Assembly (NCBI RefSeq): GCF_000829235.1
Contig: NZ_AP012549.1
Coordinates: 2,010,001 to 2,042,000 of the forward strand
Length of the DNA: 32,000 nt
Reading direction: 5' to 3'
Source of the DNA: a cyanobacterium endosymbiont of Epithemia turgida isolate EtSB Lake Yunoko
GTDB taxonomy: Bacteria > Cyanobacteriota > Cyanobacteriia > Cyanobacteriales > Microcystaceae
Below, piece after piece: positions 1 to 32,000 of the stretch; positions within the stretch are counted from its first letter, which is position 1, and each line of letters begins with the position of its first letter. A program made the translations under genes and the position numbers. The notes under the pieces were generated by a model. It was not told where the DNA came from, did no database searches, and saw nothing but the letters and a program-made list of their open reading frames with translations.

Positions 1-264
1 TAACTAAAAATATTAGCTTCAGAAGATGTGATTCATCAACTAATATTTAGACTCTTTGTAGAGGAAGTCATGACATATAACTGCCGCCAAGGTTTCCATG
101 CTAACAAGCCTTTCGGTTTTTGTTATAAAATTTGCTATATTCCTTTTACCTAATAGGAATATTCTTCTGTTAAATTAACTGACAATGATTATTCTCGGGT
201 CATTTATCAACTTTGAATTGTTCCAACTAGGTTAACTTTTGCAGAATAAATTTTTAGCTTAAAT

Positions 265-1236
265 TTAATCAACTAGCTTTTTAGATTCTAACCAGTCTTG
301 ATTGTACAAACGAGATTGATATCTTGCTCCCCCATCACACAACACTGTTACAATGGTATGTCCAGGTCCCATCTCTTTGGCTAAAGCGACTGCCGCACCT
401 ACATTAATGCCAACCGACCCCCCCATGAATAAACCATCTTGGTACAGCAACTGATGGACAACTCGAAGAGCTTCACGATCATTAATTTGGATGGCATTAT
501 CGATGGGAACTCCCTCCATATTGGCCGTTATGCGACTATTACCAATTCCTTCGGTAATGGAATTTCCTTCAGGTTTAATTTCCCCAGTCTTTACATAACT
601 ATAGAGTCCGCTGCCCATAGGATCGGCAACAATACATTTGATGTTAGGATTCTGTTCTTTAAAAAATAAGGCAGACCCTGCATAAGTCCCTCCAGTTCCG
701 GTAGCAGAGACCCAAGCATCGATTTTTCCATCGGTTTGCGCCCAAATTTCAGGACCTGTTGTTTCGTAATGAGCTAAGCGATTTGCTATATTGTCGAATT
801 GATTCGCCCAGATAGCATTGCTCAGTTCTTGAGCTAGTCTTCCCGAAACTTTAATATAATTGTCAGGATCACGGTAAGGAACTGCAGGGACAGTTTTAAC
901 TTCAGCCCCCAAGGTTCTAAGAAGATCGATCTTTTCCTGGGATTGAGTTTCAGGAATCACAATTAAACATTTATACCCTTTTGCATTACAAATATGGACT
1001 AACCCTATCCCTGTATTACCGGCTGTTCCTTCAACTACCGTCCCCCCAGGTTTAAGCAAGCCTTCTTCTTCTGCGCCTTTAATAATATATAAAGCAGCTC
1101 TATCTTTAACAGAACCCCCTGGATTGAGAAATTCGGCTTTCCCTAAAATCTCGCATCCAGTTTCTTGGCTAAAACTATTTAACCGAATTAAGGGTGTATT
1201 GCCAACTGTCCCAACGAAGCCGTCTTTAATATCCAT
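265..1236 (-). CDS. PLP-dependent cysteine synthase / cystathionine beta-synthase family protein (O-acetylserine sulfhydrylase-like)
   Basis: 323-aa ORF with the PLP-lysine motif 'NPGGSVKDRAA', 'EGTAGNTGIGLV' and the 'SATGTGGTYAG' phosphate-binding loop. These are typical of fold-type II (Trp-synthase-beta-like) enzymes. Confidence 0.85.
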   Translation of the reverse strand: MDIKDGFVGTVGNTPLIRLNSFSQETGCEILGKAEFLNPGGSVKDRAALYIIKGAEEEGLLKPGGTVVEGTAGNTGIGLVHICNAKGYKCLIVIPETQSQEKIDLLRTLGAEVKTVPAVPYRDPDNYIKVSGRLAQELSNAIWANQFDNIANRLAHYETTGPEIWAQTDGKIDAWVSATGTGGTYAGSALFFKEQNPNIKCIVADPMGSGLYSYVKTGEIKPEGNSITEGIGNSRITANMEGVPIDNAIQINDREALRVVHQLLYQDGLFMGGSVGINVGAAVALAKEMGPGHTIVTVLCDGGARYQSRLYNQDWLESKKLVD

Positions 1237-1502
1237 AATCCTCTATTTTGTCAAATGACAACAGATAGCGATTTCTTTTAGTTGATTTAATCGTTATTCT
1301 CTTTTGTCTGATCCTCAACACTATCTCTGATAGTATCAGGAAATTAGTAGATAAATTGTAAGTTTTACAGGAGTCTTTGATTTTTTGTGTTACGGTAACT
1401 CAGCTACTGATTTGAGAGAAAAACAGCTACTGAAGGCGACAAATAAAATTTTATATGAGTTCAAAGTTATATCCCAACTCTGAAAAGATCCAATCTCGTA
1501 AC

Positions 1503-1542
1503 CTGCTCAAAAACGTTCTTTTAAAAGAACGTTTTTGAGCAG
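1503..1542. repeat. 40-bp perfect palindrome (ctgctcaaaaacgttctttt|aaaagaacgtttttgagcag); orphan terminator-like hairpin
   Basis: Checked base by base: every position 1503-1522 pairs with 1542-1523, and pairing breaks at 1502/1543. It lies about 270 bp upstream of the divergent cysteine synthase gene, and no intact gene ends near it. Confidence 0.7.
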
Positions 1543-2071
1543 AATAATGGCTAATTTCTTAGAATAATAGGAAACTTTGAATCTATTTGTGAGGTAAAAA
1601 TGAGATTGCATATTTATAGAAAATAAATATTGCTTAATCCTAAGTGTTTTGATTTGTTTTGAATCCCTATTGTTAGGGATTCAACTTTAATATAATTTAT
1701 CGCTCTTAATTCTTTGATTCACTACTGTTATGAAATTTTTATTGTATGTATATTGTTTAATAAATCAAAATACTTCTATTTAATCAAAATTTTGATAATC
1801 AGTAATGAAGATTGATTGTAAACTTAAAATCTTATTTGTTTAACTACGTCGAACATTTAAGTACATCAGGAAAAATCTAGTTAAAATTTTTAGTTTAGCA
1901 TGCATGGTTTAATTTGGATATAAAATCTGTTATAATACCATATAATAGCGATTATGTTTTTTTATAAGTTTATTGTTCGAGATTAAACTCTGTCTTTATA
2001 TTTTTGACTATTAGATTACAGGTTTAGTATAAACAACTTTCTTACAGTTCTATCTCAATAGAAAAACTTAA

Positions 2072-3637
2072 ATGTCCATAATTGATCAACTAGAAATACT
2101 GGATAATATTGTTGTTACGGCAGAACAAATGAGGGAAATTGAAGCCCGAATTTTTGAGAACGGAATGCCTGTAGCAGCCTTAATGGAAAAAGTAGCAATT
2201 TTATTAGCTCGTCGAATACAAGAACTTTATCCCCTGTTTCAAACCTTACGAATAGGAGTTTTAGTTGGACCTGGACATAATGGTGGAGATGCTTTAGTTA
2301 TAGCTAGAGAATTGTATTTACAAGGTTATGATATTTGTTTGTATCAGCCCTTTTCTAGGTTAAAAAAATTAACTTTGCAGCATGCAAATTATGCTCAGAG
2401 TTTAGGAATTACCTGTTATCGAGATATCGAATATATAGAAAAATGTGAGTTGATTATTGATGGCTTATTTGGGTTTGGTTTGACACGATCACTCTCAGGA
2501 AATATTGCTGAGACTGTAAATATTATTAACCAATTACCTATTCCCATCATTAGTATTGATATTCCCTCTGGCTTACATACGGATACAGGAGAAGTTTTAG
2601 GAACAGCTATCAAAGCGACCTATAGTTTTTGTTTAGGATTGTGGAAACTCATTTATTTCCAAGATCAAGCCCTAGACTATATTGGTAAAACAGAACGGAT
2701 TGATTTTGGTATTCCTCCTCAAGATATCTGGGCTATTCTACCTAAACCTGCTCCTATAAAACAGCTGACTTTAAACCTAGCACGACAATTTTTACCCTTG
2801 TGTCGTCCCTTATTAACCCATAAATACAAACAGGGACATTTGTTGCTTATTTGTGGTTCTCGTCGCTATGCAGGGGGTAGTATCTTAACAGGGTTAGGTG
2901 CGCGCAGTAGTGGTGTGGGGATGCTATCGATTGCCATTCCTGAGTCCCTAAAACCTTTGCTAGTCAGTCAGTTACCCGATGCGCTAATTATTGATTGTCC
3001 CGAAACCGAAACCGGGACAATCGCCCAATTACCCCCCCTAGCTACAGCCTTTGACAACTATGATGTCATTGCCTGTGGACCGGGGTTAACCTTGGAGGCA
3101 ACATCGGTCGTCGAACAAGTATTGACAGCACCGTGTCCTCTAGTTTTGGATGCGGATGGGTTAAATATCCTAGCTAAATTAGGAACTATTGACACTTTAT
3201 CAAAGAAAAACAGCCTAACGGTTTTAACCCCTCATCTAGGGGAATTTAAACGGCTATTTCCTTCTATTGAGCATCCTGGCGGAGATAGAATAGCGGCTGT
3301 TCAAGCTGCGGCTAAAGCAAGTGGTACAATAGTTTTATTTAAAGGAGCTAAAACAGTGATCGCTGACCCTAATGGTCATGTCTGGTTAATTTCTGAGAGC
3401 ACCCCCGCTTTAGCACGAGGAGGCAGTGGAGACATTTTAACTGGGTTGATTGGGGGGTTATTAGGGCAAACTACTTCTAGTCTCCATGAGAAAGAGATCG
3501 GCGGAGGAGGAATAGTGGCGACAGCCGCTTTGTGGCACGCTCAAGCGGCTATCTTAGCAGCAAAAGAGCGTACTGAGTTAGGGGTAGATGCTGTCACCCT
3601 GTCCAATTATCTTCACCAGGTTAATTGGAATAATTGA
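2072..3637 (+). CDS. nnr: Bifunctional NAD(P)H-hydrate repair enzyme (epimerase + ADP-dependent dehydratase), YjeF family
   Basis: 521-aa ORF. The N-terminal YjeF_N part carries 'GPGHNGGDALV'. The C-terminal carbohydrate-kinase-like part carries 'GPGL' and 'RGGSGDILTGLIGGLL'. Confidence 0.9.
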   Translation: MSIIDQLEILDNIVVTAEQMREIEARIFENGMPVAALMEKVAILLARRIQELYPLFQTLRIGVLVGPGHNGGDALVIARELYLQGYDICLYQPFSRLKKLTLQHANYAQSLGITCYRDIEYIEKCELIIDGLFGFGLTRSLSGNIAETVNIINQLPIPIISIDIPSGLHTDTGEVLGTAIKATYSFCLGLWKLIYFQDQALDYIGKTERIDFGIPPQDIWAILPKPAPIKQLTLNLARQFLPLCRPLLTHKYKQGHLLLICGSRRYAGGSILTGLGARSSGVGMLSIAIPESLKPLLVSQLPDALIIDCPETETGTIAQLPPLATAFDNYDVIACGPGLTLEATSVVEQVLTAPCPLVLDADGLNILAKLGTIDTLSKKNSLTVLTPHLGEFKRLFPSIEHPGGDRIAAVQAAAKASGTIVLFKGAKTVIADPNGHVWLISESTPALARGGSGDILTGLIGGLLGQTTSSLHEKEIGGGGIVATAALWHAQAAILAAKERTELGVDAVTLSNYLHQVNWNN

Positions 3638-3679
3638 GAAGAAACAAAATTCTATAAAGAAGACTCTATAACTAATGTA

Positions 3680-4111
3680 GTTGAAGAAATCGTTAACGCG
3701 GTTAGCCACTGGTGGTGTGAAAAGAAAAGTCATGATGACAGAACCCTCCTATTCAGATACAACACGGAAATCTCAGTTAAATTATCCTTCCAAACTTCAC
3801 TTCATGTAAAAACTCCTTCCTAGCATCACCACCGTGTCTTGATGTAGGGGGCAATTGTCTTACTAGGACTAGGTACAAGTTTAATCTCTCGATAGGTTTT
3901 CTTACAGTGGAACCTAACTCCTTGGGTAGAAACTAAACTCAGTAATTTTAAAAATCGTCCAGTTCATTTAGGAGCCCTTAAGTATTTTTCATTAGGTCAA
4001 GTGCGTTTTGGCAAAAGTCAGATTGCTAAAACTGCTGCTGATTCTGCTCAAGTTACTATGGCTGCTTTGGACGTAGCCTACGATCCTCTCACATTAGAGA
4101 TTATCGGGTAA
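3680..4111 (+). pseudogene. Possible N-terminal remnant of a TamB/DUF490-like translocation-assembly protein; the rest of the gene is missing or decayed
   Basis: A single frame reads '...GAIVLLGLGTSLISR*VFLQWNLTPWVETKLSNFKNRPVHLGALKYFSLGQVRFGKSQIAKTAADSAQVTMAALDVAYDPLTLEIIG*' and contains several in-frame stops. A hydrophobic anchor followed by an 'L.P.VE..LS....RPV.LG....FSL...RFG.S.I' pattern matches my recollection of cyanobacterial TamB-like N-termini. This has not been verified by alignment. Confidence 0.35.
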
Positions 4112-4923
4112 GTCGCCGCTTACAGGGTTAAATAACTATGACAGAACAGGATTTTTGCCAATGTCTGGAAGGACTGTTGCCTCTTTACCAACAGATTACT
4201 AAGTAAATATAACAGTGATCGCCGTGAGAAATTATGCCAATGGTCATCATTGTCGAGAGTCTAATCTTTCATTGCAACCTAAGTCTATTAGATGGAGATA
4301 ACGTTATACTCTAACTCTTTTTACTATTCCTTATGGGGCATTAATTACCTAAACTATAAAAAAATTATTAGTATGTAACAACAACATTTAATATTGCCAT
4401 ATGGCTAATAGGAGTATCTGTTTACAACCTGTTGTGATAAACTTGGGACGGGACGCAAGAATGGCAGCCACTTTATATATTGACACTTTATATATTAAGT
4501 TAAATTGTCAGCCTAGGAATGTTTTTGTTAGAGAAATTAAAGAAACATTATTAACATATTTTTTTGCTCCTCCTGGAATGATTCCTTTATTTAATTTAGT
4601 TCCTCCACATCCCCAATGGTTGTATTAGCAACAGTATTATTTAGATTATCTAGAGGATTACCTCATTACAGGGAATTATCCTTGTTCTAGTTTTGTTATT
4701 TAACCATTGTTAAATAGTCAGCTTGATCGAGTATATTTTTACCGCCATAATACTCAAAAAATTTTTTTACTATTACTGGCTCTTTCAAAAGATAAGAAAA
4801 ACTTATAAATTAATAATATTTTTCTAAAATTAATAAACAGTTAAGTAATTTTTAACCAAAAACATTATCAGTATAATGACGTTTTAATTATTCAGACAGT
4901 TGGTTACTATTATAGTAATTTTT

Positions 4924-4970
4924 TTCTATTTATTTAATTAAAATATTTAATTTTAATTAAATAAATAGAA
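4924..4970. repeat. Perfect 21-bp inverted repeat with a 5-nt spacer, composed almost entirely of A/T
   Basis: ttctatttatttaattaaaat (4924-4944), attta, then attttaattaaataaatagaa (4950-4970). The arms are exact reverse complements. It lies in a 2-kb AT-rich spacer. Confidence 0.6.
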
Positions 4971-6650
4971 GATCAAAACTAATGCTATAAAACATAGTTT
5001 TTTATTTAAAAAAGTCAAAAATATATTTAACAACCCTAACTTACTAAGTTATATAAAATATCACCTTAATTCTCAAGAGAGAAGATAACTATTAATAGGG
5101 CAACTGTTACTATTTAAACAGCTTAATTCTTCTGATTTTGGTAGTTTATACAGACATAAATGGAGTACCCAGAATAATCCTTGCATAATGAACAAGCAAA
5201 AAAGAAAAAAAAGAGAGTATATTGGCGATAATTAGTTCGGTATTGATATGTTACCTAAAGAACAAGACCATAAGTTGGTCAATATATTCAGATGAGGATA
5301 CGGTTTATTCAGACATTATTGAACTTGAAAATATTTTTTTTTAAACTGTCAAGTTGATACAATATAACCTAAAAACTGTATAAATACAATGGTATACTGA
5401 TATTCTGTAATAATTTTACAACACAGGTTAAAAACGATCCTAAGATTAAACGAACTTAAAATTAAAGGCTAGGAGTTATGTATTGAGAATACAGACTAAA
5501 TATGGGGTTTCTAGAATAGATAAGACGATTATTATATACTAGGCTCACTAAAAATTTCTCAATAATGTCAATAGTGACTAAATGTATTGCTCAATAAAAC
5601 TCTATCTAACTTAGGATAATAAAAATTAATAAAATCCTGGCATAGCCTGATCTGACAATAATTTTATAATAAATAAACTATTCCATAATAAGGTCTTTAA
5701 AAGGTTAATGCTAATAATTATCTATAAAAAAATTGATATTTTTATCAATAAAAAACAATTTTAATACTCTTAAATATAATTTAATTTAAAATTAATCTAG
5801 TCATGTTTTTAATTTAAATTACTTATTAGCCATAATTTAAAATTTTTAATCAGAGCTAATAATAGCTAAAAAAGCAAGTTAATATTACCTCATATTTTAT
5901 GGCTTAATTTTATTTTAAATACCTAATTTATTTATTATGTAGTAGCATTATTTAATAATATAAATAGTGATTTTATCTTTTAAAAATTTTTTATTTATTC
6001 CGTTTATATATTGCATTATCTCACTGAAATATAAAATCGTGCAATATTATTTTTGATTTTTTTAAGGATGTTAACTTATCCCAACTCTTTTAAATAAACA
6101 ATTTTCCTATTTTTATCGATCTCTAGGATTGCAATCACCTAGCACTCTCTTTTTTTGATTAATATTTGTTATTTTTTAGCTATTACTATCATGAAATATA
6201 AGTTATAGTCATTAGATGAATCGTCAAATATCTTGTATCAGAATAAAAATTACATTTAGTCATTGATTTATTTTTTAAAGTTTTAATAGCTATATTTTAT
6301 TCTAAAAATATTTTCTGCATTTATATTTTTTTATTTTTAGCGATAGCTTTATATTTTTAGATTTGTTATACTTAAGCTCATCTCTCAATGAGTAACTTCT
6401 AAAAACTATCAAAGCTTAATTGATTATATATTGTGAATCTATATAACCCAGCAAGTCAATAGGGAAAAATCTTCTCAAAAGTCGCAGACGTAACAAAATT
6501 ACATCACATAAAGCATCACTGAAGAAAATAATTAGCCAAAATTGCTTTATATAGAGGGGAGAGCTATCTCTAAATAAAATGGATTAATAAAAAAAGATAT
6601 GAGAGATTATTGATATATTCTCTTTTTTAATCTTTATTTTAGTCTAGTTT

Positions 6651-7298
6651 ATGAACAAATCAGATCCGAATATAACTTTACGATTACTGCCCTTTTTTGC
6701 GGGAGTACTTGGCAGTATTCTCTTATTAATTAACCGTTTTACTACATTAACCTTAACGGCATCTCAGTCTCGTTCCGATGTTGTAGGAGTTATTCTCAAT
6801 GGGGTCTTGATTTTAGTTGGGTTAATCTGGCATAAAGTTCAACCACGATCACCTGATGCTGTTACTCTTGTTGGAGAACAAGGTTTCGAATTTGCCCCCT
6901 ATTTACCAGAAGAAATCAAAAAAGAACTTGCTTGGGCCTCCTATTTAGTATTAACTAATACCGTTACCAAATCTTTGGTGGTTTACTATCAGGGAGTGGT
7001 GGTGTTGAGACGAGGGATTTTAGGCATTAACTCTCAAGTAATTCCGGGCAATATTTTAGAAAAAGTTTTGGCAAGTAAAAAGCCAGTTTATCTAGTGAAT
7101 TTGCCTCTTTATCCAGGACGCGTCGAGTTTGATTATCTCCCCGAAAATACTCAGGGAGTAATATGTCAACCTTTGGGAAACCAAGGGGTTTTGATTTTGG
7201 GGGCAAATGTCCCCCGCAGTTATACTAAACAGGACGAAAATTGGATCAAAGGAATCGCTGATAAATTAGCAGATACCTTACAAACCTATTTGCAATAG
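6651..7298 (+). CDS. Conserved cyanobacterial membrane protein, probably DUF2930 / CCB2-CCB4-like (cytochrome b6f cofactor assembly family)
   Basis: 215-aa ORF with two N-terminal hydrophobic helices. The motifs 'SQSRSDVVGV', 'ELAWASYL', 'LYPGRVEFDYLPENTQGVICQPLG' and 'LGANVPRSYTKQDENWI' match the family as I recall it. The family assignment is from memory. Confidence 0.5.
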   Translation: MNKSDPNITLRLLPFFAGVLGSILLLINRFTTLTLTASQSRSDVVGVILNGVLILVGLIWHKVQPRSPDAVTLVGEQGFEFAPYLPEEIKKELAWASYLVLTNTVTKSLVVYYQGVVVLRRGILGINSQVIPGNILEKVLASKKPVYLVNLPLYPGRVEFDYLPENTQGVICQPLGNQGVLILGANVPRSYTKQDENWIKGIADKLADTLQTYLQ

Positions 7299-7378
7299 GT
7301 CTATATTTTTATCAACCATTTTGATTAGGGAACAGTAAAGACAAGTCAACCGCTATTTATATTCTGGGAAAATATCCG

Positions 7379-7999
7379 ATGAACCTATCTCTTGACCCCT
7401 TATCCCAAGTCCGAACTCTATCAGATTTAAGAGGTTCTATGACTCATTCCTATCATCAAGGAAGTCATTGGCAACCGCAAGTATTGCCGGAAACATCATT
7501 TTATTATTTTGCCTATGGGTCTTGTATGTGTCCTGTAGACTTAAAACGAACTTTTGGCGAAAACACTTATCAATATGTGATGGGAAACGCTATCTTGAAA
7601 GGATACCGGTTAGGGTTCTATCGTCGTTCCCTACGGCGTAATTGTGGGGCATTGGATGTAGTTCGTGATCCCAATTTTTGTGTAGAAGGAGTTTTATATC
7701 ATCTTCCTTGGCGATTTAGTGCTCGCCTTGATGCTCGAGAAGAAGTTCCCCGCAATGGATATCGTCACGAATATGTTAATGTTTATAGTGAAGGAAAACT
7801 CTATAAAAATGTGCGAACTTATGTCGTTATTGACAAACTACCTCAAGAATTAGCCCCCAATGATTGGTATTTGAATGTAGTATTGCGAGGGGCGGTTACT
7901 TGTGGTTTATCAGAAGAATATTGTTGGTGGTTATTTAACCATATGCACCAACTCCAGTTACAACAAAGTCAAGAAGTTATTCTTGCAAATTGTTCGTGA
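7379..7999 (+). CDS. Gamma-glutamylcyclotransferase-like (AIG2/GGCT fold) protein
   Basis: 206-aa ORF with 'YYFAYGSCMCPVDLKR' (the YGS-x-M signature), 'VEGVLYHL' and 'LDAREEVPRNGYRH', laid out as in GGCT-like proteins. Confidence 0.6.
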   Translation: MNLSLDPLSQVRTLSDLRGSMTHSYHQGSHWQPQVLPETSFYYFAYGSCMCPVDLKRTFGENTYQYVMGNAILKGYRLGFYRRSLRRNCGALDVVRDPNFCVEGVLYHLPWRFSARLDAREEVPRNGYRHEYVNVYSEGKLYKNVRTYVVIDKLPQELAPNDWYLNVVLRGAVTCGLSEEYCWWLFNHMHQLQLQQSQEVILANCS

Positions 8000-11427: not shown

Positions 11428-11517
11428 ATAAGATTATAGTTATCTCATTCTATCCAAAATACTATACACAAATTGTTTAACCCTGTCCAATTCGCGTTTC
11501 CATAGCCATATCTGGCT

Positions 11518-14431: not shown

Positions 14432-14437
14432 GATTTT

Positions 14438-18619: not shown

Positions 18620-18675
18620 ACACTATAACGATGGTAGAATCTTGTTTTTATAGAAAAGCATAGGAGGGATTTATT

Positions 18676-21053: not shown

Positions 21054-21105
21054 CAGACTTAACGTGACGGATAATAGACATTGGAACAAACAAGTTTACT
21101 ATTAA

Positions 21106-21891: not shown

Positions 21892-24172
21892 AAAAATTAA
21901 TTGAAGATAAAGGCAAGTTTTTACCTTATTTTAATCAAGCTAATTGTTTCTTTCAATTTTTTCATGGCGGTTTAATTGTCCCATAACTAGTTAATTTAAT
22001 CAGATGGTTATCTGTCTGTAGGTTGACTGAGTCGACAGTTTCATTTTGCAAAGTATAAGTAGCGACATCAACACCAATAGTGAATGTAATCTCATTTTGC
22101 CCTATCTTAGAGGTTTAGCTGTAATCACGATTCATCTGTTAACAGGTTTTAAAGCTATTTATGTATTGGTTTTAAGTACAGTAGCCATAATTTATTCTAC
22201 TCCAAATTTTACTAAACAATCAACTGTTTGTAGAAAGGTTATATCATCATTCAACCATTAGAGTAGACTTGAACATCTTTATACAGCTACGTCTTCTAAG
22301 AGCTTAGTCTCTGGTATATTTTTTTATTGTTTAATAGATGCTTAGAGTTGTGTTGGATAGATTAGTATTAAATTGAGATAAATAGATAAATTTAAATAAG
22401 GGTTTTCCTGAACAATGGTTTTTAAAGAACAATCGTTAGATACCAGATTATCTAAAAATTAGCTGACATAATTAGAAGAGTAAGAACTATCATTTACTTA
22501 TAATTTACAACTACTTTTAAATAAACTAGGAATAGTGTTTTTTTTAAAAAAAAAAGATTACCGCAATAACAATAATTATATTCTAATCAACCTCTATATT
22601 AATTACTCTAATCTAATATAAAGGTTGATTTATTTGTGTACATTTAAATCTACTTATTTAATTTTAATATAATAAAAACTAACTTATTACTCAAAACCAT
22701 TAATACAAGCAAACTAATTAATATAATTATCGACATAATAGCTAAGTGATTAATATCAATAATTTCATTTTTTCTAGACTAGCTATGGTTAATTTTTAAT
22801 AAATAAAGACTAAAACTATTATTAACTACCAATTTATAGTACTTGAGCTATAAGAGGCATAATTTCTAAATATATTTACATATAAAATAGCATAGATGCA
22901 AATGATTAACCACCATAAGAGTTTAAAATAAGGTTAACTTATTTAACGTAGAAAGACTTACTAAAAATAGATTATAGTATATATTTGTAGGTATTTATAT
23001 CAATGACTATTATTGATATTTTAATAAATTTATCCTTTTTTAAAATTATTTAATTTTAAATTTTGTAATTTTTCTTTGCCATAAGCAATAATCTGTTTTT
23101 GGTGATCTATTGAGATAGTATCAACTGTTAAAGCGGGTCAATTCTTATTGAGTAATTTGTTGGTTTTAGTTAATACAAGAAAAATATAAATAATTCCAAC
23201 AAACTTTTCCTGAAAACCATTAAAAATAAGCACTTTAATACCAGTGTTGGGAATATTAGGAACGCTATTAGAGTAAACCTCAGTTATTTTGTGATAGCGC
23301 TGATAGGTGCGTGTTTTACTATTTGAGAACTCAGTTAAATTGCTCCTCATAAGAAGCAATCCTTGATGGTTAACCTGATGATAATTTTGGATCATATTTA
23401 CCTGACTATCGGTGATGTTAACATACGAAAAGTTTAGAATAAATATATATTTAATTAGTTTATTTTTGGTTTATAGCATAGATAAATTGATATCAATTTA
23501 TTTGCTTATTTTTTGTTGAAAACCTAGAATTAAATGCCCCTAAAACTAATGTTAGATTTAGTATGGTAAAATATTTTAATATTGTTTTAATTTCGCGTTT
23601 AAACTATCATTTAAACATAATAAGCCATGTTTGTAAACTAGAAATCGGTAAAATTTAACCGTAAAATATTTCAATTGATGGAAACCAGATAAATATCAAA
23701 TACAGTCCAATACAGGCTATAAAGTATAACTAAATTAGGATAAAAACACACTAACAAAGCAAAAAAACCGTCTTTTTCGTAAAAAAGAAAAGATAATAGC
23801 ATAGGGATATTCTCACAATAGACTAAGTACAGATATTACTAATAAGTACTATGATAAGTTTTGAAAAAATACTTTAATTTTTAAGAATAGTTCAATCTGC
23901 GACTGTCTCAAGCATAAAATCTATCCACAAAAACGGTAGCTTAAAATAATTATCTAAAAATTTTACTATTAACAAGAAACCAAGACCTGAATGATACCTT
24001 CATTTAACCCTAAGTCTAGATAATTTTGTCCTAATCTCTTATAGCTAGCGCATATTTATAGTTTTTTTGTTATTTTTTAGAGGTAAATCATTGCTATCAA
24101 GAAAAAGACTGAGATCACCAATTTTTTAAACAGTCAACTTCATCCATTATTACTGGTATAAAAATTGCTAAA

Positions 24173-24727
24173 TTAAAAGGGTAGATGCGGAGTATAACTT
24201 ATTACTGCATCAATTTGCTGATAAATACCAGCCAGGCGATCTCCGTCTACATGAATTTCAGAAGTGGGGTAATTTTCTAAAATTTCGATCACTTGAATAT
24301 TACGATCAGAGAGTGCAGAAGTTACTAAAGCTCCTCTTAATGATTCCCGATCAGCCCGTCTTGAGGGAGTATGGATTACTTGGCCAACTTTATCTAATAC
24401 GAAATTCCCAGCAAAACTTTTCAGGATTTTGGATAAAAATACAGGATCGACATTCACATTTTGATTGAGAATACGGCGTAAATCTTCAGGTTGTTTATTT
24501 GCCATTTTGAGATAAGAATTTAAGGAAGAAGATATCTCACCTGTTTTAGCTAAGGTACTTAACTCAGAAATACAGACTGACTCTCGTAAAATACTATATT
24601 TTAGTATAATTTTATCAGCTGCTTCAACTGGCAGAGCAGCATAAAGTGCTCCAAAATTTCCTAAGATTAAGTTTAAGCTTAACCGATAGACTAGACTAAG
24701 TTTTATGAACTTTTTCATTACTATCAA
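24173..24727 (-). CDS. DUF1400-like secreted protein (possibly the surviving N-terminal domain of a longer alpha/beta-hydrolase-type protein)
   Basis: 184-aa ORF with a signal-like N-terminus. The pattern 'ILKYSILRESVCISELSTLAKTGEIS..L..YLKMANKQPEDLRRIL...V.VDPVFLSKIL' resembles DUF1400 as I recall it. The start may be the internal MKKF at 24718. Confidence 0.45.
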   Translation of the reverse strand: MIVMKKFIKLSLVYRLSLNLILGNFGALYAALPVEAADKIILKYSILRESVCISELSTLAKTGEISSSLNSYLKMANKQPEDLRRILNQNVNVDPVFLSKILKSFAGNFVLDKVGQVIHTPSRRADRESLRGALVTSALSDRNIQVIEILENYPTSEIHVDGDRLAGIYQQIDAVISYTPHLPF

Positions 24728-25337
24728 TTAAATTCAATAATTTCTAATATATATTCTACACCAGGTAAAAAAATATTAGTACGTTAATACTTTTTATTTT
24801 AGTGAGGTGTTAAGTTTCCTTTTGTCCTTAACTTTTAATATTCTTTATGTATAATCACCAGTCATAGTGATTACCCTCAATGGAATATAATAAAAAGTTT
24901 AGCAAAAATTATTAGTTTTTTAGCGAAATAAAACATAGTTTATCCTCCATCATTATGGTATATTAGTACTTTATTTTAACCAATAGTTATATAAGATTAA
25001 GACTTCTAGTCTAAACGTAGACTATCAGAGAGGTAACTAAGTTTCCTACTGTTTTACTTCTTTTATGACGATGTCTCCCATTGCCAAACAAAATAGTAAA
25101 TACTTTGGGTAGATCCAAGTATCTTCAGTGAAAGTGACGATACTTGTAAAATTAGCTAAATTAACGAAATGTTTATTATTAACTTTTTTAAAAAATTTAT
25201 TGCCAATGCCTAGACTTATTAGTCTAGGTTATAGATTTACACTATGCCAAGAGAAAGCCAATCTATTATTTTGCTTCCCCAAAAAATATAAAAAATAAAC
25301 CAGCTTGAGTTAGAAACCAGATCGTAACCGGATTAGG

Positions 25338-25387
25338 TTTTATGTTTAACTCCAGATAGAAATTTCTATCTGGAGTTAAACATAAAA
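25338..25387. repeat. 50-bp perfect palindrome (25-bp arms, no spacer)
   Basis: ttttatgtttaactccagatagaaa|tttctatctggagttaaacataaaa. All 25 pairs were checked and pairing breaks at 25337/25388. It lies in the decayed spacer upstream of the chlM pseudogene. Confidence 0.7.
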
Positions 25388-25783
25388 GTCTTGATAAGGC
25401 ATAGTTATGCTCTCATCAAGAGTTCTCTTTATTATGTCTGATTTAAATAAAAATAAAGTTAAATATTTTTTTTGAAAAATTGTTTTTATAGTAGCAGATT
25501 TAGTTATTTGTAGAAAGATTATTACTTTTGATAAATTTAATTAGAATTAACCTTATTGTAAATCATTGTTTAGCATCTATAACAGATTAGAGGGTGACCA
25601 CGTATCATCAACTCTTGATATCGTTGAAGAATCTGAACCGGAAAAAGAATCAGGAGAAACTCAATGAAAATTTCAAGGATTACTTCTAACTTCGTTAAAT
25701 AGTGAATAGTAAAAGCAGTTTATACCCGCACTTGCCAGTACAATAAGGGGTTCTCCTCAATAATTTTAGATTATCTCACGCCA

Positions 25784-26469
25784 ATGAACACTATCGACGA
25801 TAAAGCAATTGTTAAAAAATATTTCAATGCCATTGGGTTTGACCGTTGGCGCAGGATTTATGGAGATGGAGAGGTGAATAAAATTCAAGAGGACATTCGT
25901 CGCGTCCATCAACAAACTATTGATACTGTGGTAGACTGGCTAAAGGCTGAAGAAAATATCAGTAGTTTGTCTATTTGTGACGCGGGGTGTGGTGTGGGGA
26001 GTTTAAGCATTCCCTTAGCTCAAACAGGGGCTAGAGTCCTTGCCAGTGATATTTCCGCGAAATGATGGAAGAAGCCGCCCAAAGAGCCCCAAAATCCCTG
26101 TAAGATGCCAGTAATATTGTCTTTACAGTTCAAGACTTACAAAAATTGTAGGGTCAATATCAGACCGTCATTTGTATTAATGCTCTGATTCATTATCCTA
26201 CCGAAGATACAGCTAAAATGATTGCCCATCTTGCCTCGTTAGCAACGTCTCGTCTAATTCTTATTTTTGCTTCTAAAAACCTTTGTTTAACTATCCTTAA
26301 AAAAATCGGCGAATTCTTTCCAGAACCTGGTATAACTACCCGTGTCTCTCAGCATAAAGAAAAGGATGTCATTGCCATTCTAGAAAACAATGGTCTAAGA
26401 GTTCAACGCGAAGCTATGACCAGTACACGTTTTTATTACTCTCGAATTCTAGAGACGACCCGAAGTTAA
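25784..26469 (+). pseudogene. chlM: Mg-protoporphyrin IX methyltransferase, inactivated by one frameshift and two nonsense codons
   Basis: The N-terminal fragment (25784-26065) carries 'KKYFNAIGFDRWRRIYGDGEVN' and 'CDAGCGVGSLSIPLAQTGA'. The C-terminal fragment (26218-26469) carries 'MIAHLASLA...FASK...LKKIGEFFP...[12 protein letters not shown]'. The two are in different frames. The switch maps to the A-run at 26060-26062, and the second frame contains TAA 26101-26103 and TAG 26149-26151. Confidence 0.9.
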
Positions 26470-26510
26470 TTACTCGATCTTACTTAACTTTTAGCTCATA
26501 TTTGTTGATT

Positions 26511-27284
26511 ATGTCCATTACCCTTCAATGCCTTATTGAGGCCAAACGGCAAGGACGTCTCTTAACTGTCCTCACTGCTTGGGATTATGCCATTGCTCAA
26601 CTCTTGGACATAGCAGGGGTTGATATTATTCTAGTGGGGGACTCCCTGGCAATGGTGGCCTTGGGACATAAAACTACATTACCCTTGACCCTTGAGGAGA
26701 TATTACACCATGGAGGGGCAGTGAGGCGTGGAGTCAAACGGGCTTTCTTAGTGTGTGATTTGCCCTTTTTGAGTTATCAAGAAAGTATTAGCCAAGCTAT
26801 CCACACGGCGGGGCGAGTATTGAAAGAAACAGAGGTTCAAGCGGTGAAACTCGAAGGAGGATACCCAGCTGTGGTAGAAACGGTTGCTCAATTGACGGCT
26901 ATTGGTATTCCAGTGATGGGTCATGTGGGGTTAACTCCCCAGTCGGTACATCGCTTAGGATATCGTCAACAGGGACAAACTGAAACTGACGCGAAACGAA
27001 TTATCTCAGAAGCAATCGCCCTATCAGAGGCGGGGGCATTTGCAGTTGTTCTTGAGCATATTCCGTCTAATTTAGCAAAGATTATTACTAATAAGCTTCC
27101 TATCCCAACCATCGGTATTGGCGCAGGATCTGACTGTGATGGTCAGGTATTGGTTACTGCTGATTTACTGGGATTATCAGGAAAAAAACCCCCTTTTGCT
27201 AAATCATATACCAATTTACGGCAGATTATTACTGAAGCGGTAAAAGAGTTTTCTAGAGAAGTACGCGAGGGGAAATTTCCCTAA
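26511..27284 (+). CDS. panB: 3-methyl-2-oxobutanoate hydroxymethyltransferase (ketopantoate hydroxymethyltransferase)
   Basis: 'LTVLTAWDY', '[14 protein letters not shown]', 'AVKLEGG', '[10 protein letters not shown]' and 'LEHIPS'. I prefer the ATG at 26511 over the TTG at 26502 given by the ORF track. Confidence 0.93.
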
Positions 27285-28096
27285 TTTAATAATAATTTCT
27301 TAATCGCAATAGCAACTCCATTTTGTTCTACAGTGGGAGCTACCCATTTAGCCATCTTCTGGACTTCTATAGGTGCATTCCCCATAGCCACCCCTAACCC
27401 TACATACTCTAACATTTCAGCATCATTGAAATTATCCCCAATAGCCATTATTTGGCTGGCTTCCAATCCCAATAGTTCCTCCGCTACAAAACGAGTGGCA
27501 TTACCCTTAGTTGCTTGAGGATGGGTAGCTTCAAAATAAATTTCAGTAGACTGGGTTAAATAAAGTTGATTACGAGGGTAAACTTTTTGTAAATCTGTCA
27601 AAAGTGTATTTACTAAGTGAGGTTGACCAATAACTAAAATCTTCGTGGTTGGTAAATCAAGAATATCTCGTAAATCTTCTACTACCAAAGCTTCTATCCC
27701 TGATCGTTGTTGATAAGCTCGAGTACGAGAAGTAACATTACGCACGTACAAACGGTCATCAATATAGCAGTGAAGCTCAATTTCTTGATTCCATTGAGGT
27801 CGCTCAAAATATTCCAACAGTTGTAGAGCGACGGACGTAGATACAGGAAAATGTCTATAACGAGTTCCTGTTATAGGACACTGAACCCATGCCCCATTGT
27901 AGGCGATAATAGGTAATTGGGAACCGATAGCCTGATGAAAACGCAACGCAGAATGATACATCCGACCTGTAGCTAAAGCAACTTGAACCCCGTTAGCTTG
28001 AACTTTAGAGATCGCTTCCTTAACTGGTTCAGTAACCTCATTTGATTCACCTGCAATTGTTCCATCAATATCTAGCATCAATAAGCGAATGTTCAC
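27281..28096 (-). CDS. Cof-type HAD-IIB family hydrolase (sugar-phosphatase-like)
   Basis: 271-aa ORF with HAD motif I 'LMLDIDGT', motif II 'ALATGR' and motif IV '[10 protein letters not shown]'. It converges on panB and overlaps it by 4 nt. Confidence 0.85.
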
Positions 28097-28247
28097 AGAT
28101 TATCCCCAGTTAATTCTTGTTTTCTGAAAGAAGATTTTGCTTGGAGAATCGACATGACCATTGAGGGGCAATCTATGCATTGTTCTATAGAATAATAACA
28201 ATTGAACTCAATCAAGATCAATATTCTATTAACCTTGACTGTAGCTG

Positions 28248-28358
28248 TCAGTCCATTTTGAAGGCAAACCAAACCGCCCACAAGACAATAGACAGAAATA
28301 CCAATGTCCCGACAGTAATAGCGAAAGTGTGAAAAGCATCAGAGTCAATAAGGGTCAT
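28248..28358 (-). CDS. Candidate 36-aa single-pass membrane peptide (unassigned)
   Basis: Hand translation of the minus strand gives 'MTLIDSDAFHTFAITVGTLVFLSIVLWAVWFAFKMD*'. It has one clean hydrophobic helix and a local GC content like the intact genes. It is below the ORF-track length cut-off, has no clear SD and no family recognised. Confidence 0.3.
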   Translation of the reverse strand: MTLIDSDAFHTFAITVGTLVFLSIVLWAVWFAFKMD

Positions 28359-30054
28359 CTTGAAAAGCTTAGGGGTGTTTTGGTTTAGACAATCCAAAAG
28401 GGCATCTCAAGCTATTGTGTAGATACCTTGTATTCCTTTATTATATCCGTTGTTTCAACTATATTTCCCAAGTTACTTATTTTCTCTAGTTTTGATCGAT
28501 TGTTCGAGTTATTCTTAACCCAACTTGTAGGGTTAGTACAATAAAATGCTTCATGGAGAAGGTTTTAAAAGAGATAGTCTGATTACACCTAAATGGCTGT
28601 ATTTTATACACTCCATGTAATAAAATACAAATGAGTGAGTTGTTTGGGCTTTCCAAAATATCTGAGTCTTTCCTAATTCGGACATAGTCTGTAATTGAAT
28701 ATTTCCGAATGCCTCAAACTGCCTAGTCTTCAACCTTTTTACGAGCATAACCATCTTGCCAGTCACTGCTAATGATTTTCACCACAAATGTAGTCCAAAC
28801 TGTCTAAAGTTAAAATAGACTGGTTATTATAGTCAAACCGAAGTGCTTCTTGACTAAGTGCATCTTGATCAACAACGGCAACATCAGTCTGACATGAGTC
28901 ACAATTAAATTTGCAGAACTCAAATCAGTTTCATAAGTGTAGTAAGACTACTTTAGCATGTTTAACAAACTCTTCAGCTACAACGTCACTACCTGTCTTT
29001 ATTTCTTTCCAGAAACATATTTTAAAAGTTTAATTAACTTCATTTTTAAAGAAAAATATATTGTGATAGCTAAATTTTTTAGATAGGCTGGTATCTAATT
29101 ATCTCTTTTTTAAAACTATTTTTATATCTTACATTGACTTTAAGTTTACCTACTTAAATTCTCTTGCTTCAGTTTTGTAGATCACAATAATTTATTGCAA
29201 GTTTCTTTATATTATTCCCATTCAACTTATAATATTTTATTGATAGTTCTAATTGAATATCAATTTTTTTGAATATATAAATACTAGCTTACTAGAATTA
29301 TGGTAATTTACACTAATAGTTTAAATATTTAAACTATTGCAGTTTTTTATCAATTTAATCCTGGTTGTAAAAGAAAAATTACGTAACAATATAGTAAAAA
29401 AGTGAATAAAAATGGCATACGAAATAATTCTTTGTTTTGCGAGAAATATTTTAGACTCTCTAAGTAATATATGCTTTTCATATTATTGTTGTAGACCAAA
29501 CAAATCTTTGTGTAATGTTCTAATTTTTTCAAATTCTAATGTAGGGGTTTTAAAATATCCCGTTATGCTCCTCATGATATCAGTATTTATAAGCGTTGAT
29601 AATGCACTTGTATCACCATAATAAATTTAAATTCAATAGCACGCAGCAATTTCACTCTATATTTCCCATTTCTGTCTGTTATAGATAGTAAATATTCAGT
29701 TAACCTAAAATCTTGAACGTACGTGGTTTCTCGTCCAGTAAATTTCATAACTGTTATTTTTGCTGCCGGTAGAATGACCAAATTCCCCTTATTGTCAATA
29801 TTGCAGATCTACATATTTTTATTTAGTTGACTTTAAATTTTGAGTAAGTATTAAATGACAATCTCCTCATCCTATTCAGTCTATGTCCACTATCAGTAGA
29901 AGTTGTTATAAAATTCCCGAAGCTATTTTACAGACAGCGATATACTAGGCAATGGTGTTATAGAAAATCTTGACAAGATAGCCAGCAGACAAAGATCATC
30001 AGATACGTCAAGTATCAATCAACAGACTTAAACCTATAACTTGTATCAATCAAG

Positions 30055-31173
30055 ATGAACACAGGAATCGACCTACAAGGCAGTTTTATTCAATCTCTCA
30101 AACAAATGGGAATTTCTGATGGGCTAGCAAAAGCCTTCTGGATTCCCTTGCCCTCATTTTTAATGATTATTGGAGCTACCGTCGGCGTATTAGTGGTGGT
30201 ATGGTTAGAACGAAAAATTTCTGCCGCTGCTCAACAACGTATTGGACCTGAATATGCAGGTCCTTTAGGGGTTCTTCAACCTGTGGCTGATGGCATTAAA
30301 TTGGTATTTAAAGAAGACGTCATCCCCGCTAAAGCAGACCCCTTGTTATTTACCCTAGGTCCAGTGTTAGTGGTACTTCCAGTGTTTGTTTCTTACCTAA
30401 TTGTTCCCTTTGGGCAAAATTTGGTGATTACAGACCTAAATGTGGGTATTTTATTCTGGATTGCCTTATCCAGTATTGCCCCCATTGGCTTACTAATGTC
30501 AGGATATGCTTCTAATAACAAATATTCCCTTCTTGGAGGGTTAAGGGCAGCAGCACAGTCCATTAGTTATGAAATTCCCTTGGCTTTATCCGTTTTAGCA
30601 ATTGTCATGATGTCTAATAGTCTCAGCACTATTGACATTGTGCATCAACAGTCAGGATATGGCATTTTAGGCTGGAATATTTGGCGGCAACCTGTAGGAT
30701 GTATTGTCTTTTGGATTGCGGCGTTGGCTGAATGTGAACGACTTCCTTTTGACCTTCCTGAAGCAGAAGAAGAAATCGTAGCAGGGTATCAGACTGAATA
30801 TTCAGGGATGAAGTTTGGTTTATTCTATTTAGGCTCATACGTCAACTTAGTTTTGTCGGCCTTGGTTTTTGCTATTCTTTACTTAGGGGGGTGGGAATTT
30901 CCAGTCCCTCTTGAAAAACTGGCAGGTTGGATTGGGGTAAACGAGACAAATTCCTGGTTACAGGTAATTACCGCTTCCTTGGGAATCATGATGACCGTAC
31001 TTAAAGCCTATCTCTTGATTTTCCTCGCTGTTTTAATCCGGTGGACAGTTCCCAGGGTTCGTATTGACCAATTATTGGATTTAGGTTGGAAATTCTTACT
31101 TCCTGTTTCTTTGGTTAACCTTTTATTGACGGCAGCCCTAAAACTTACCTTTCCTGTCGCTTTTGGCGGCTAA
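30055..31173 (+). CDS. ndhA: NAD(P)H-quinone oxidoreductase subunit 1 (NDH-1 subunit A, NuoH homologue)
   Basis: 372-aa polytopic ORF with '[30 protein letters not shown]', '[27 protein letters not shown]' and '[15 protein letters not shown]', the canonical NdhA/NuoH signatures. Confidence 0.95.
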
Positions 31174-31209
31174 TCTCTTTTTTTGTTTATAACTCACCAA
31201 TCAAGTGTC

Positions 31210-31791
31210 ATGTTTAACCTACTCAAACAAGTCAGCGATTACGCTAAAGGGAGTGTTGAGGCAGCTAGATATATTGGTCAAGGGCTATCTGTTACCTTTG
31301 ACCATATGCGTCGCCGTCCAATTACGGTACAATACCCCTATGAAAAACTTATTCCCTCAGAACGATTCCGGGGAAGAATTCACTTTGAATTTGATAAGTG
31401 TATTTCCTGTGAAGTCTGTGTTCGGGTATGTCCAATTAACCTTCCGGTAGTAGATTGGGAATTTAACAAAACTGTTAAGAAGAAAGAACTCAAACACTAC
31501 AGTATAGATTTTGGAGTTTGCATTTTTTGCGGTAATTGTGTTGAGTATTGTCCCACCAATTGTTTATCCATGACGGAAGAATATGAACTAGCGGCCTACG
31601 ACCGTCACGAACTCAATTATGATAATGTTGCTCTCGGACGGTTGCCTTATAAAGTAACCCAAGATCCAATAGTAACTCCCTTACGAGAGTTAGGATACTT
31701 ACCTAAAGGGGTGTTTGAACCTCATGATTTACCCTTAGGAAGTCAACGGGCAGGAAAGCGTCCTGAAGAAATTGTAAAAGAGAGCGAGTAA
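31210..31791 (+). CDS. ndhI: NAD(P)H-quinone oxidoreductase subunit I (NDH-1, 2x[4Fe-4S])
   Basis: '[14 protein letters not shown]...[24 protein letters not shown]' and two ferredoxin boxes, '[12 protein letters not shown]' and '[12 protein letters not shown]'. The start is set at ATG 31210. The 9-codon upstream extension from 31183 in the ORF track does not match the conserved N-terminus. Confidence 0.95.
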
Positions 31792-31793
31792 AA

Positions 31794-31840
31794 TATTTGA
31801 TAGTTAATAGTGTTCTTTTTGTACTATTAACTATCAAATA
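31794..31840 (+). promoter_or_regulatory. Intercistronic hairpin (18-bp perfect stem, 11-nt loop) between ndhI and ndhG
   Basis: tatttgatagttaatagt (31794-31811), gttctttttgt, actattaactatcaaata (31823-31840). It begins 3 nt after the ndhI stop and ends 14 nt before the AAGGAG SD of ndhG (31855-31860). Confidence 0.55.
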
Positions 31841-31871
31841 AACTAAACTAAGTTAAGGAGAATTAACAGTA

Positions 31872-32000
31872 GTGAATTTAGCGGAAGGCATCCAAATTGT
31901 TTCCTTTGCTATTTTAGCAACAATGGTTATTGGGACATCTATAGGGGTTGTTTTACTGTCAAATATTGTTTACTCTGCTTTTTTGTTGGGGGGAGTTTTT
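31872..32000 (+). CDS. ndhG: NAD(P)H-quinone oxidoreductase subunit 6 (NDH-1 subunit G, NuoJ homologue), 5' partial; runs off the window
   Basis: A GTG start 11 nt after AAGGAG translates to 'VNLAEGIQIVSFAILATMVIGTSIGVVLLSNIVYSAFLLGGVF'. This matches the conserved NdhG N-terminus and the ndhA-I-G gene order. Confidence 0.85.
   Translation, partial: MNLAEGIQIVSFAILATMVIGTSIGVVLLSNIVYSAFLLGGVF

Follow-up and report, generated by a model that had tools for sequence, protein, structure and literature searches.

The DNA examined here is a stretch of 32,000 nucleotides (nt) from the chromosome of the cyanobacterium endosymbiont of Epithemia turgida (contig NZ_AP012549.1, positions 2,010,001 to 2,042,000 of the forward strand), which we call the window and number from its first letter. 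The endosymbiont is a spheroid body (SB, or diazoplast) and is abbreviated EtSB. The window is very probably a typical stretch of the EtSB chromosome under ongoing genome erosion, with a non-genic part made up mostly of dead, AT-enriched gene remains. A first-pass annotation, made by a model from the letters and their reading frames alone, had proposed such erosion, and the interpretation is supported by genes that are dead in the window, by spacers that evolve neutrally, by biases toward A and T and toward deletion, and by homologous loci of free-living relatives that are more densely coding.

Coding fraction and base composition

Intact genes add up to 15,221 bp (47.6% of the window), close to the ~15.1 kb and the coding fraction below 50% that the first-pass annotation had claimed. 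Counted as intact are 17 open reading frames (ORFs) of at least 80 amino acids (aa), a conserved 36-aa ORF, and the first 144 nt of ndhG, and this set amounts to ~0.56 genes per kb. Recognizable pseudogene remains account for another 5,295 bp (16.5%) and the rest of the window for 11,484 bp (35.9%). The annotation had put the pseudogene remains at only ~2.6 kb, an underestimate: with proteins of relatives as tblastn probes 5.3 kb were found, and some of these remains lie inside stretches that had been listed as spacers (4629-4832, 14478-15298, and 21892-24172). All ten of the listed spacers do lack an intact ORF, and the boundary drawn at 28359 rightly leaves out the 36-aa ORF at 28248-28358.

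Composition follows the same division. The content of guanine plus cytosine (GC) is 0.391 in the intact genes, 0.313 in the pseudogene remains, and 0.260 in the rest, and the contrast between genes and the rest has z = 22. In the intact genes GC is 0.513, 0.373, and 0.288 at first, second, and third codon positions (the last is referred to as GC3) and 0.326 at four-fold degenerate sites. A GC profile of the window shows long spacers ranging from 0.187 (19333-20608) to 0.300 (28359-30054), and the lowest value over 300 nt, 0.133, lies close to 20000. Three spot counts given in the annotation were exact (8 G+C at 19381-19440, 10 at 19981-20040, and 26 at 16741-16800).

The genome is identified by the 645-aa FAD/Rieske product encoded at 8724-10661, which matches a protein recorded for 'cyanobacterium endosymbiont of Epithemia turgida' at 100% identity, and every large ORF of the window leads to a cyanobacterial protein. 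For comparison at the same region we used the SBs of Rhopalodia gibba, R. inflata (L088, CP191494), and E. pelagica (L089), and that in an ENA assembly of 3.10 Mb (L085). All four share the window's gene order, both between yjeF and trmB and between DUF1400 and ndhG. The free-living side was represented by SU2 (assembly GCA_002110465.1; loci including L024 and L091), reported to be the closest free-living relative (Abresch 2026, bioRxiv 10.64898/2026.03.19.712447), and by Rippkaea orientalis PCC 8801 (L083, L090, L092). The annotation's guess of Cyanothece/Crocosphaera-type relatives was a good one, as the Rippkaea/SU2 lineage falls within the Crocosphaera/'Cyanothece' group. Positions 13049-24478 are collinear with 14.3 kb of the SU2 locus L024, which was recovered by a GuaA scan (93% aa identity) and is tightly packed with ORFs. 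The three PCC 8801 loci have nearly no gene order in common with the window and yielded no new mapping.

Low coding density and AT-rich intergenic DNA might be ancestral to this cyanobacterial lineage and owe nothing to endosymbiosis, and the intergenic DNA of SU2 and Rippkaea does contain somewhat more A and T than their coding DNA (GC 0.33-0.36 versus 0.38-0.41). However, a density like that of the window was not found in the free-living relatives: the five homologous loci are 78-91% coding, namely 78% and 80% at two SU2 loci by public gene calls, 89% at SU2 L024 by tiling of ORFs of at least 80 aa, and 86% and 91% at two loci of Rippkaea PCC 8801. Four loci of other SBs are 51-72% coding. 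The gap in GC between coding and non-coding DNA is 0.13 in the window versus 0.03-0.08 in SU2 and Rippkaea, and genes that are dead here are intact in the free-living relatives. An ancestral origin of the low density therefore has next to no probability in our estimation.

Dead genes and their decay

The remains of eight genes, 5.3 kb in total, are recognizable in the window, and about one third of the non-genic DNA could be placed in this way. Proteins of SU2 and of the other SBs served as tblastn probes, and families were named by Pfam on the intact copies. Between yjeF and the CCB gene, the E. pelagica and L085 SBs carry an intact tamB (1846-1862 aa), of which the window retains an N-terminal stub (3696-4096, + strand; aa 6-137 of 1863, matched in two frames at 62-77% by TamB of the E. 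pelagica SB; GC 0.406); the remaining ~5.2 kb of the gene are gone from the window. Next to the stub lies the C-terminal part of a FAD_oxidored pseudogene (4102-4832, + strand; aa ~323-562 of 579, 55-60% identity, E 3e-74 and 1e-63; GC 0.313). The 579-aa FAD oxidoreductase is intact directly upstream of the CCB gene in the L085 SB and at SU2 L091, with PF12831 on the intact copy. At the junction (4097-4101) tamB codon ~137 abuts oxidoreductase codon ~323, which implies, by arithmetic from the L085 coordinates, that ~6.8 kb were lost. The R. gibba SB has kept the tamB stub and has no trace of the oxidoreductase, so the region was lost differently in the two lineages.

A DUF4079 membrane protein pseudogene (11506-12148, + strand) is 63-75% identical to the 219-aa SU2 orthologue and has an in-frame stop after codon 96 as well as a frame change. 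Its Pfam match spans only profile positions 2-71 of 141, and both the R. gibba SB (222 aa) and SU2 have an intact copy. Between hisB and guaA lies a pseudogene of a 401-aa SAM-dependent methyltransferase (14462-15542, - strand; 31-36% identity to the SU2 protein in two frames, E 4e-36; family from Pfam on the SU2 copy). Its GC is 0.279 versus 0.387 in SU2, and the interval that holds it has kept nearly all of its length (1231 bp versus 1257 bp in SU2). Also detected with SU2 proteins were a pseudogene of a 176-aa TPR protein (20609-21053, - strand; three pieces of 52-62% identity, Pfam TPR on the SU2 copy; GC 0.272), remains of a response-regulator diguanylate cyclase that has 309 aa in SU2 (21980-22239, - strand; aa 213-300, 37-40%, E 3e-5; Response_reg and GGDEF on the SU2 copy), and remains of a 1200-aa hybrid sensor histidine kinase (23036-24008, - strand; aa 2-130 and 250-391, 35-41%, E 7e-22), the SU2 copy of which has dCache, PAS, HisKA, HATPase, and receiver domains. 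An 85-aa ORF at 23138-23395 is a piece of this dead kinase. The eighth is a recent pseudogene of chlM (Mg-protoporphyrin IX methyltransferase; 25706-26466, + strand; GC 0.402), whose two halves stand in different frames joined at ~26056 and are 73-81% identical to the E. pelagica SB protein. Six SU2 genes (those for the methyltransferase, the TPR protein, the diguanylate cyclase, and the kinase, and two more, for a Uma2 endonuclease and a DUF5615 protein) lie in three SU2 intervals totaling ~8.1 kb and have been lost from the matching ~5.3 kb of the window. About two thirds of the DNA is still there and none of the six genes survives.

Could the broken frames, and the low density with them, be products of sequencing or assembly errors, or of ORF criteria that miss genes? 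Some other SB assemblies do look error-prone: the stretch of the R. inflata SB that we used contains 5004 N and several shortened gene calls. For the window, an independent assembly (Logan SRR29904087; L001) is 100% identical, without gaps, over 1513-14467 (12,955 bp), so that assembly errors do not account for the broken frames of tamB, the FAD oxidoreductase, and DUF4079. Further, the dead genes mapped with SU2 proteins are 31-62% identical to them and have many stops, which is not what single frameshifts would leave, and gene calls in the public collection on the same DNA agree with our ORF list. We regard an artefact as a negligible prospect. The shortened calls in the R. inflata SB (NdhG 97 aa, TrmB 124 aa, the solute-binding protein 100 aa, and DUF1400 91 aa, all full-length in the other SBs) are either further pseudogenization in that lineage or problems of masking or assembly.

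Arranged by composition, the remains form a gradient in which GC drops stepwise as protein similarity is lost. At one end stand the intact relatives (GC 0.33-0.40), together with chlM and the tamB stub (GC 0.40-0.41, 62-81% aa identity); DUF4079, the FAD oxidoreductase, and the GGDEF remains have GC 0.31-0.33; the methyltransferase, TPR, and kinase remains have GC 0.26-0.28 and 31-62% identity; and at the other end the unrecognizable spacers reach 0.19-0.28. We infer that the latter are older corpses of the same process.

Losses also differ between SBs. In EtSB chlM is dead and panB intact, and in the E. pelagica SB chlM is intact (228-aa ORF) and panB fragmented (L089 11072-12147). Such lineage-by-lineage loss, seen here for chlM, panB, tamB, and DUF4079, is the pattern predicted by ongoing erosion. 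As a separate matter, an intact gene of the chlorophyll pathway is curious in the E. pelagica SB, an endosymbiont that is reportedly non-photosynthetic.

Neutral evolution, mutational bias, and deletion

Spacers diverge faster than genes among SBs. Genes of the window share 92-96% identity with the R. gibba SB, and its spacers 74-90% over part of their length; for the more distant E. pelagica SB the figures are 86-91% in genes and 67-79% in spacers, the latter with coverage of 9-50%. Substitutions were polarized by parsimony with an outgroup SB, at alignable sites only. Over the EtSB and sister branches, non-coding sites have accumulated 0.117 substitutions per site versus 0.100 at four-fold sites. 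Judged from these aligned sites, the spacers evolve at least as fast as synonymous sites.

On the EtSB branch the rate of change from G/C to A/T was 0.102 per G/C site, and that in the opposite direction 0.031 per A/T site, a ratio of 3.3. The equilibrium GC content (GC*) estimated from this polarization is 0.235 for non-coding sites (bootstrap 95% confidence interval [CI] 0.195-0.278), a rough value, and 0.30 (0.22-0.40) for four-fold sites. The first-pass annotation had suggested that the most decayed spacers may approximate mutational equilibrium. Because spacer GC of 0.19-0.28 (mean of the unassigned part 0.26, most decayed spacers 0.19-0.23) agrees with this GC*, that suggestion is consistent with the data. 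For the sister Rhopalodia SB branch (window against L084 and L088) GC* is 0.33 (CI 0.29-0.39), higher than on the EtSB branch, which hints at a lineage difference in mutational bias or at an artefact of parsimony.

Deletion exceeds insertion on the EtSB branch by 1581 bp versus 36 bp in three-way alignments with L085 as outgroup. About 1.35 kb of the deleted bases are scored in the unmapped spacer at 8000-8723 (GC 0.286), which has been shortened by deletion in the EtSB lineage to 724 bp; the R. gibba SB has 2154 bp at this place, and the L085 SB 2555 bp. The photolyase and adjoining genes that lie downstream of AIG2 in SU2 were considered as ancestors of this spacer and discarded, since they have no trace in any SB.

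Spacers without an identified ancestor

Besides the spacer just described, eight long stretches could not be mapped to an ancestral gene. The first (1237-2071; GC 0.263) aligns over its full length with the R. gibba SB at 85% identity, versus 95-96% for the flanking genes, and has no Pfam match. The ultra-AT-rich stretch at 4833-6650 (GC 0.226; no Pfam match) aligns with other SBs in patches of 67-81% identity. That at 10662-11505 (GC 0.265) has a counterpart in SU2 that is also free of ORFs: downstream of the FAD/Rieske gene SU2 has 928 bp with no ORF longer than 44 aa and GC 0.297. The spacer at 12149-13042 (GC 0.277; no Pfam match) is 86%, 70%, and 69% identical to three other SBs. SU2 genes beyond the collinear block (L024 14473-21639) were tried as a source of 11809-13042 and did not match. 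The most decayed spacer (19333-20608; GC 0.187, with the 300-nt minimum of 0.133) is collinear with an SU2 interval that carries genes for a Uma2 endonuclease and a DUF5615 protein, and tblastn with these two SU2 proteins detected no remains of either in it. The remaining stretches are the gap between the diguanylate cyclase and kinase remains (22240-23035; GC 0.221; no Pfam match), a spacer at 24728-25705 (GC 0.271), and the middle part of the interval between the HAD hydrolase gene and ndhA (28511-29859; no Pfam match; GC 0.30 for 28359-30054 as a whole). That interval is 1958 bp long here and 1196 bp in SU2, where it likewise has no called gene.

The spacer at 24728-25705 contains a perfect 50-bp palindrome (25338-25387), with 25-nt arms that are 100% complementary and no spacer between them. 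Neither the R. inflata nor the E. pelagica SB has it, which places its origin in the E. turgida lineage. In DNA that drifts freely one would not expect a perfect palindrome.

Domain and repeat searches were silent across this DNA. When the ten unassigned regions were cut into stop-free pieces of 30 aa or more (6,093 residues), none of the pieces had a Pfam match at E of 0.1 or below. Pfam is silent even where tblastn detects gene remains, and old spacers cannot be assigned by domain models. Repeat and tandem-repeat searches of the window found no families beyond chance-level short matches and no dispersed or terminal inverted repeats, which rules out repeat expansion and recognizable mobile elements as the source of the spacers.

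Several points weigh against reading the non-genic DNA as dead genes drifting to equilibrium. No ancestor was identified for ~11.5 kb (36%) of the window; ~1.6 kb of it is ordinary short intergenic DNA or window edge, and ~9.9 kb lies in long spacers. Because SU2 is free of ORFs at the matching places, 10662-11505 and much, or at least part, of 28359-30054 may, from the comparison of sequences, be ancestral non-coding DNA and not dead genes. The stretch 4833-6650, between the oxidoreductase and CCB genes, has only 133 bp in its place in SU2 and was either gained in the SB ancestor or lost in SU2. The SU2 photolyase beside AIG2 is traceless in every SB examined. As for the estimates, GC* scatters over 0.20-0.33 among three combinations of sister and outgroup and comes from parsimony with a diverged, AT-rich outgroup at only those alignable sites that are less decayed, and the number of deletion events is inflated by fragmentation of the alignments, so that the base totals alone are meaningful. 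The first-pass view of the spacers as former genes consequently needs refining: the two spacers that match ORF-free stretches of SU2, and 4833-6650, may not be dead resident genes.

Part of the ownerless AT-rich DNA, especially 4833-6650 and the excess of 28511-29859, might instead derive from mobile elements or other insertions that entered the SB ancestor and have since decayed. The lengths are suggestive: the gap between the oxidoreductase and CCB genes is 133 bp in SU2 (L091 2090-2222) versus 1818 bp in EtSB and 1196 bp in the L085 SB (4901-6096), and the interval from the HAD gene to ndhA is longer here than in SU2 as well. Free-living relatives have 61-75 transposase genes and SBs fragments only (PMC11131595), and transposase genes are present in the Rippkaea loci that we retrieved. 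On the other hand, deletion in SU2 accounts equally well for the difference in length, the stop-free pieces carry no signal of a transposase or any other Pfam family, the window has neither dispersed nor terminal inverted repeats, and tblastn with the transposase-bearing Rippkaea loci matched nothing in the window. Decayed insertions are thus an unlikely source of this DNA. A bolder version of the idea is that the spacers without an SU2 counterpart (4833-6650 and the extra ~0.75 kb between the HAD gene and ndhA) are fully decayed mobile elements from the onset of the symbiosis, and this we hold to be slightly more doubtful still. If it were true, the 'missing' burst of insertion sequences (IS) in SBs did happen and was erased by AT drift, and most non-coding DNA would be an old, slowly deleted record at mutational equilibrium (GC ~0.2-0.25).

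Conserved elements in the spacers

A scan of 80-nt non-genic windows for at least 85% identity to the E. pelagica SB returned only the tamB stub, chlM, one 80-nt intergenic region, 28225-28510, and 29860-30054. The fourth of these includes an intact gene for a 36-aa hydrophobic membrane peptide (28248-28358, - strand; MTLIDSDAFHTFAITVGTLVFLSIVLWAVWFAFKMD), which is conserved in SBs, SU2, and Rippkaea with changes mostly at third codon positions. No Pfam or NCBIfam family matched the peptide. The ORF is already present at NCBI as WP_084220210.1 under the name 'delta-aminolevulinic acid dehydratase', an implausible name that cannot be right for a membrane peptide of 36 residues. It was considered as an overlooked gene in a spacer and dismissed as such, being annotated by NCBI and lying outside the boundary of the listed spacer. 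Upstream of it, ~150 nt of non-coding DNA (28359-28510, - strand) are conserved like the ORF among SBs and SU2 (identities of 85% or more with the E. pelagica SB and of 80% or more with SU2), and not in Rippkaea. A structured RNA was considered for this stretch and rejected, as its consensus fold of 36 predicted pairs has no compensatory changes. The third conserved piece is the leader or promoter region of ndhA (29860-30054, + strand; ~84% identical to SU2, 85% or more to the E. pelagica SB).

These pieces, all conserved out to SU2, are what could be expected if the spacers were functional, as long regulatory regions or as small-protein and non-coding RNA genes that lack annotation and are under selection; that SU2 retains ORF-free stretches of 0.9-1.2 kb at two such places would agree with this as well. 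However, the 36-aa gene, its upstream stretch, and the ndhA leader together make up less than 0.5 kb, out of a non-genic total of ~16.8 kb. In the remainder, divergence is as high as at four-fold sites or higher, coverage by other SBs falls to 9-50%, and spacer lengths differ up to three-fold among SBs. No Rfam family was matched in the entire window at gathering thresholds; in E-value mode nothing was found in 28097-30054, and in the entire window there was only microRNA-hairpin noise at the palindrome and at one other hairpin. ARAGORN found no tRNA and no tmRNA in the window. Homology thus turned up a few small pieces in place of the conserved genes or RNAs that would speak against erosion, and function as a general explanation of the spacers is very improbable.

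Intact genes

From the left edge, the intact genes begin with a cysteine synthase-like gene of the PALP family (265-1236, - strand; 323-aa ORF, GC 0.423; PF00291 on the R. gibba SB orthologue) and one for the NAD(P)H-hydrate repair enzyme (2072-3637, + strand; 521-aa ORF; YjeF_N and Carb_kinase by Pfam on the identical product). The first two genes to the right of the tamB and oxidoreductase remains encode a CCB2/CCB4 cytochrome b6 cofactor assembly protein (6651-7298, + strand; PF11152, E 1e-82) and an AIG2/GGACT-like protein (7379-7999, + strand; PF13772 and PF06094). The gene for the FAD-dependent oxidoreductase with a Rieske domain (8724-10661, + strand; 645 aa) has the lowest GC3 among the intact genes, 0.197. 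This carotenoid-desaturase-like gene is intact in all SBs examined, its GC3 is near spacer composition, and some sources name its homologues isorenieratene or phi-ring synthase.

The block shared with SU2 includes genes for a DUF4330 protein (13043-13573, - strand; Pfam E 9e-60, 90% aa identity to SU2), hisB (imidazoleglycerol-phosphate dehydratase; 13793-14431, + strand; PF00475 on the identical product, 89% aa identity to SU2), guaA (GMP synthase; 15663-17312, - strand; 93% aa identity to SU2), a metallophosphoesterase (17525-18619, - strand; PF00149), a trmB-type methyltransferase (18676-19332, + strand; PF02390, E 5e-48), a solute-binding protein (21106-21891, - strand; SBP_bac_3 by Pfam, 82% aa identity to SU2), and a DUF1400 protein (24173-24727, - strand; Pfam E 3e-42). 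Mechanical translation of guaA gives a TTG start and 549 aa; other SBs are called at 542 aa, and the SU2 protein aligns from residue 2 of a 544-aa ORF. On the sequence evidence, translation probably begins a few codons downstream of 17312.

Toward the right edge lie panB (26502-27284, + strand; 260-aa ORF with PF02548 on the orthologue of the R. inflata SB; the E. pelagica SB has a broken copy), a gene for a Cof-type HAD-IIB hydrolase (27281-28096, - strand; 83-91% identity to homologues in SBs and SU2), ndhA (30055-31173, + strand; 372-aa ORF, PF00146 on orthologues), ndhI (31183-31791, + strand; 202-aa ORF, 4Fe-4S domains on orthologues), and the 5' end of ndhG (31857-32000, + strand; 85-96% identity to SU2 and SB NdhG by tblastn), which is cut by the window edge. 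As far as the genes of the window go, photosynthesis is being lost and respiration kept: chlM is frameshifted, and ndhA, ndhI, ndhG, and the CCB gene are intact.

Discussion

A single course of events would account for the window. EtSB is taken to be an obligate, non-photosynthetic, nitrogen-fixing endosymbiont, and genes dispensable within the host would have been inactivated, in this case genes for signaling (the hybrid histidine kinase and the GGDEF regulator), chlM, tamB (envelope translocation and assembly), assorted enzymes, and endonucleases. Obligate host restriction and small effective population size are documented for SBs in the literature (PMC11131595; bioRxiv 10.64898/2026.03.19.712447), and we infer that relaxed selection and drift in such a host-restricted population caused the inactivations. 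Dead DNA would then evolve neutrally, with a roughly three-fold per-site bias of mutation from G/C to A/T, and under neutral, AT-biased mutation its composition would slide from ~0.34-0.40 GC, as in a living gene, toward an equilibrium of ~0.2-0.28, with similarity to the ancestral protein fading in parallel. Removal would be slow, by deletions of a few bases to several kilobases. Because removal would be slower than inactivation, about half of the window would be dead or ownerless at present.

The phenomenon is already known for SBs. Genomes have been published for EtSB itself (Nakayama et al., cited in PMC5638926), for the R. gibba SB (PMC5638926, i.e., Nakayama and Inagaki 2017), for R. gibba and E. 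adnata (PMC11131595), and for 22 more (bioRxiv 10.64898/2026.03.19.712447). These genomes have 0.58-0.68 genes per kb, 126-286 annotated pseudogenes (225 in EtSB), and GC of 33-35% (PMC5638926; PMC11131595; bioRxiv 10.64898/2026.03.19.712447), and the window, with ~0.56 genes per kb, does not differ from them in kind. Their non-coding regions were said to hold, probably, highly degraded gene remnants (PMC5638926; PMC11131595; bioRxiv 10.64898/2026.03.19.712447). The low coding density and lingering dead DNA of SBs have thus been in print since 2017, with further reports in 2024 and 2026.

The staged model of genome reduction by McCutcheon and Moran, as cited in bioRxiv 10.64898/2026.03.19.712447, leads one to expect a burst of mobile elements and rearrangements. 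Neither is seen in the window by repeat searches, Pfam, or gene order: there are no repeats or transposase remains, and the window is collinear with other SBs and, over 11.4 kb, with SU2. That SBs depart from the model was already pointed out by Abresch et al. (bioRxiv 10.64898/2026.03.19.712447), and the absence of intact transposases or mobile elements and the high, stable synteny are reported in PMC11131595 as well.

Similar states are known from other host-restricted bacteria. Mycobacterium leprae and Sodalis glossinidius are pseudogene-rich, recently host-restricted, and about half coding. The window resembles them in being ~50% coding, in having dead genes that are intact in free-living kin, in its drift toward A and T, and in the lag of deletion. 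UCYN-A, the nitroplast (Candidatus Atelocyanobacterium thalassa), is a related nitrogen-fixing endosymbiont of the same cyanobacterial group as the SBs. It is AT-rich and host-restricted and has a much smaller, compact genome from which dead DNA has already been shed, whereas SBs still carry theirs. In the SB phylogeny UCYN-A serves as an outgroup (bioRxiv 10.64898/2026.03.19.712447).

What the present analysis adds for the window is a base-by-base map of ancestral genes, a check against the neutral rate, an equilibrium GC from polarized substitutions, and a few spacers that SU2 gene order does not explain. The equilibrium estimate is a first, rough one, and it matches the most decayed spacers. 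The finding as a whole re-discovers a known feature from raw sequence and leaves existing knowledge unchanged. Spheroid bodies serve as a model of the early path from bacterium to organelle, and low density together with dead DNA is the headline feature of their published genomes.

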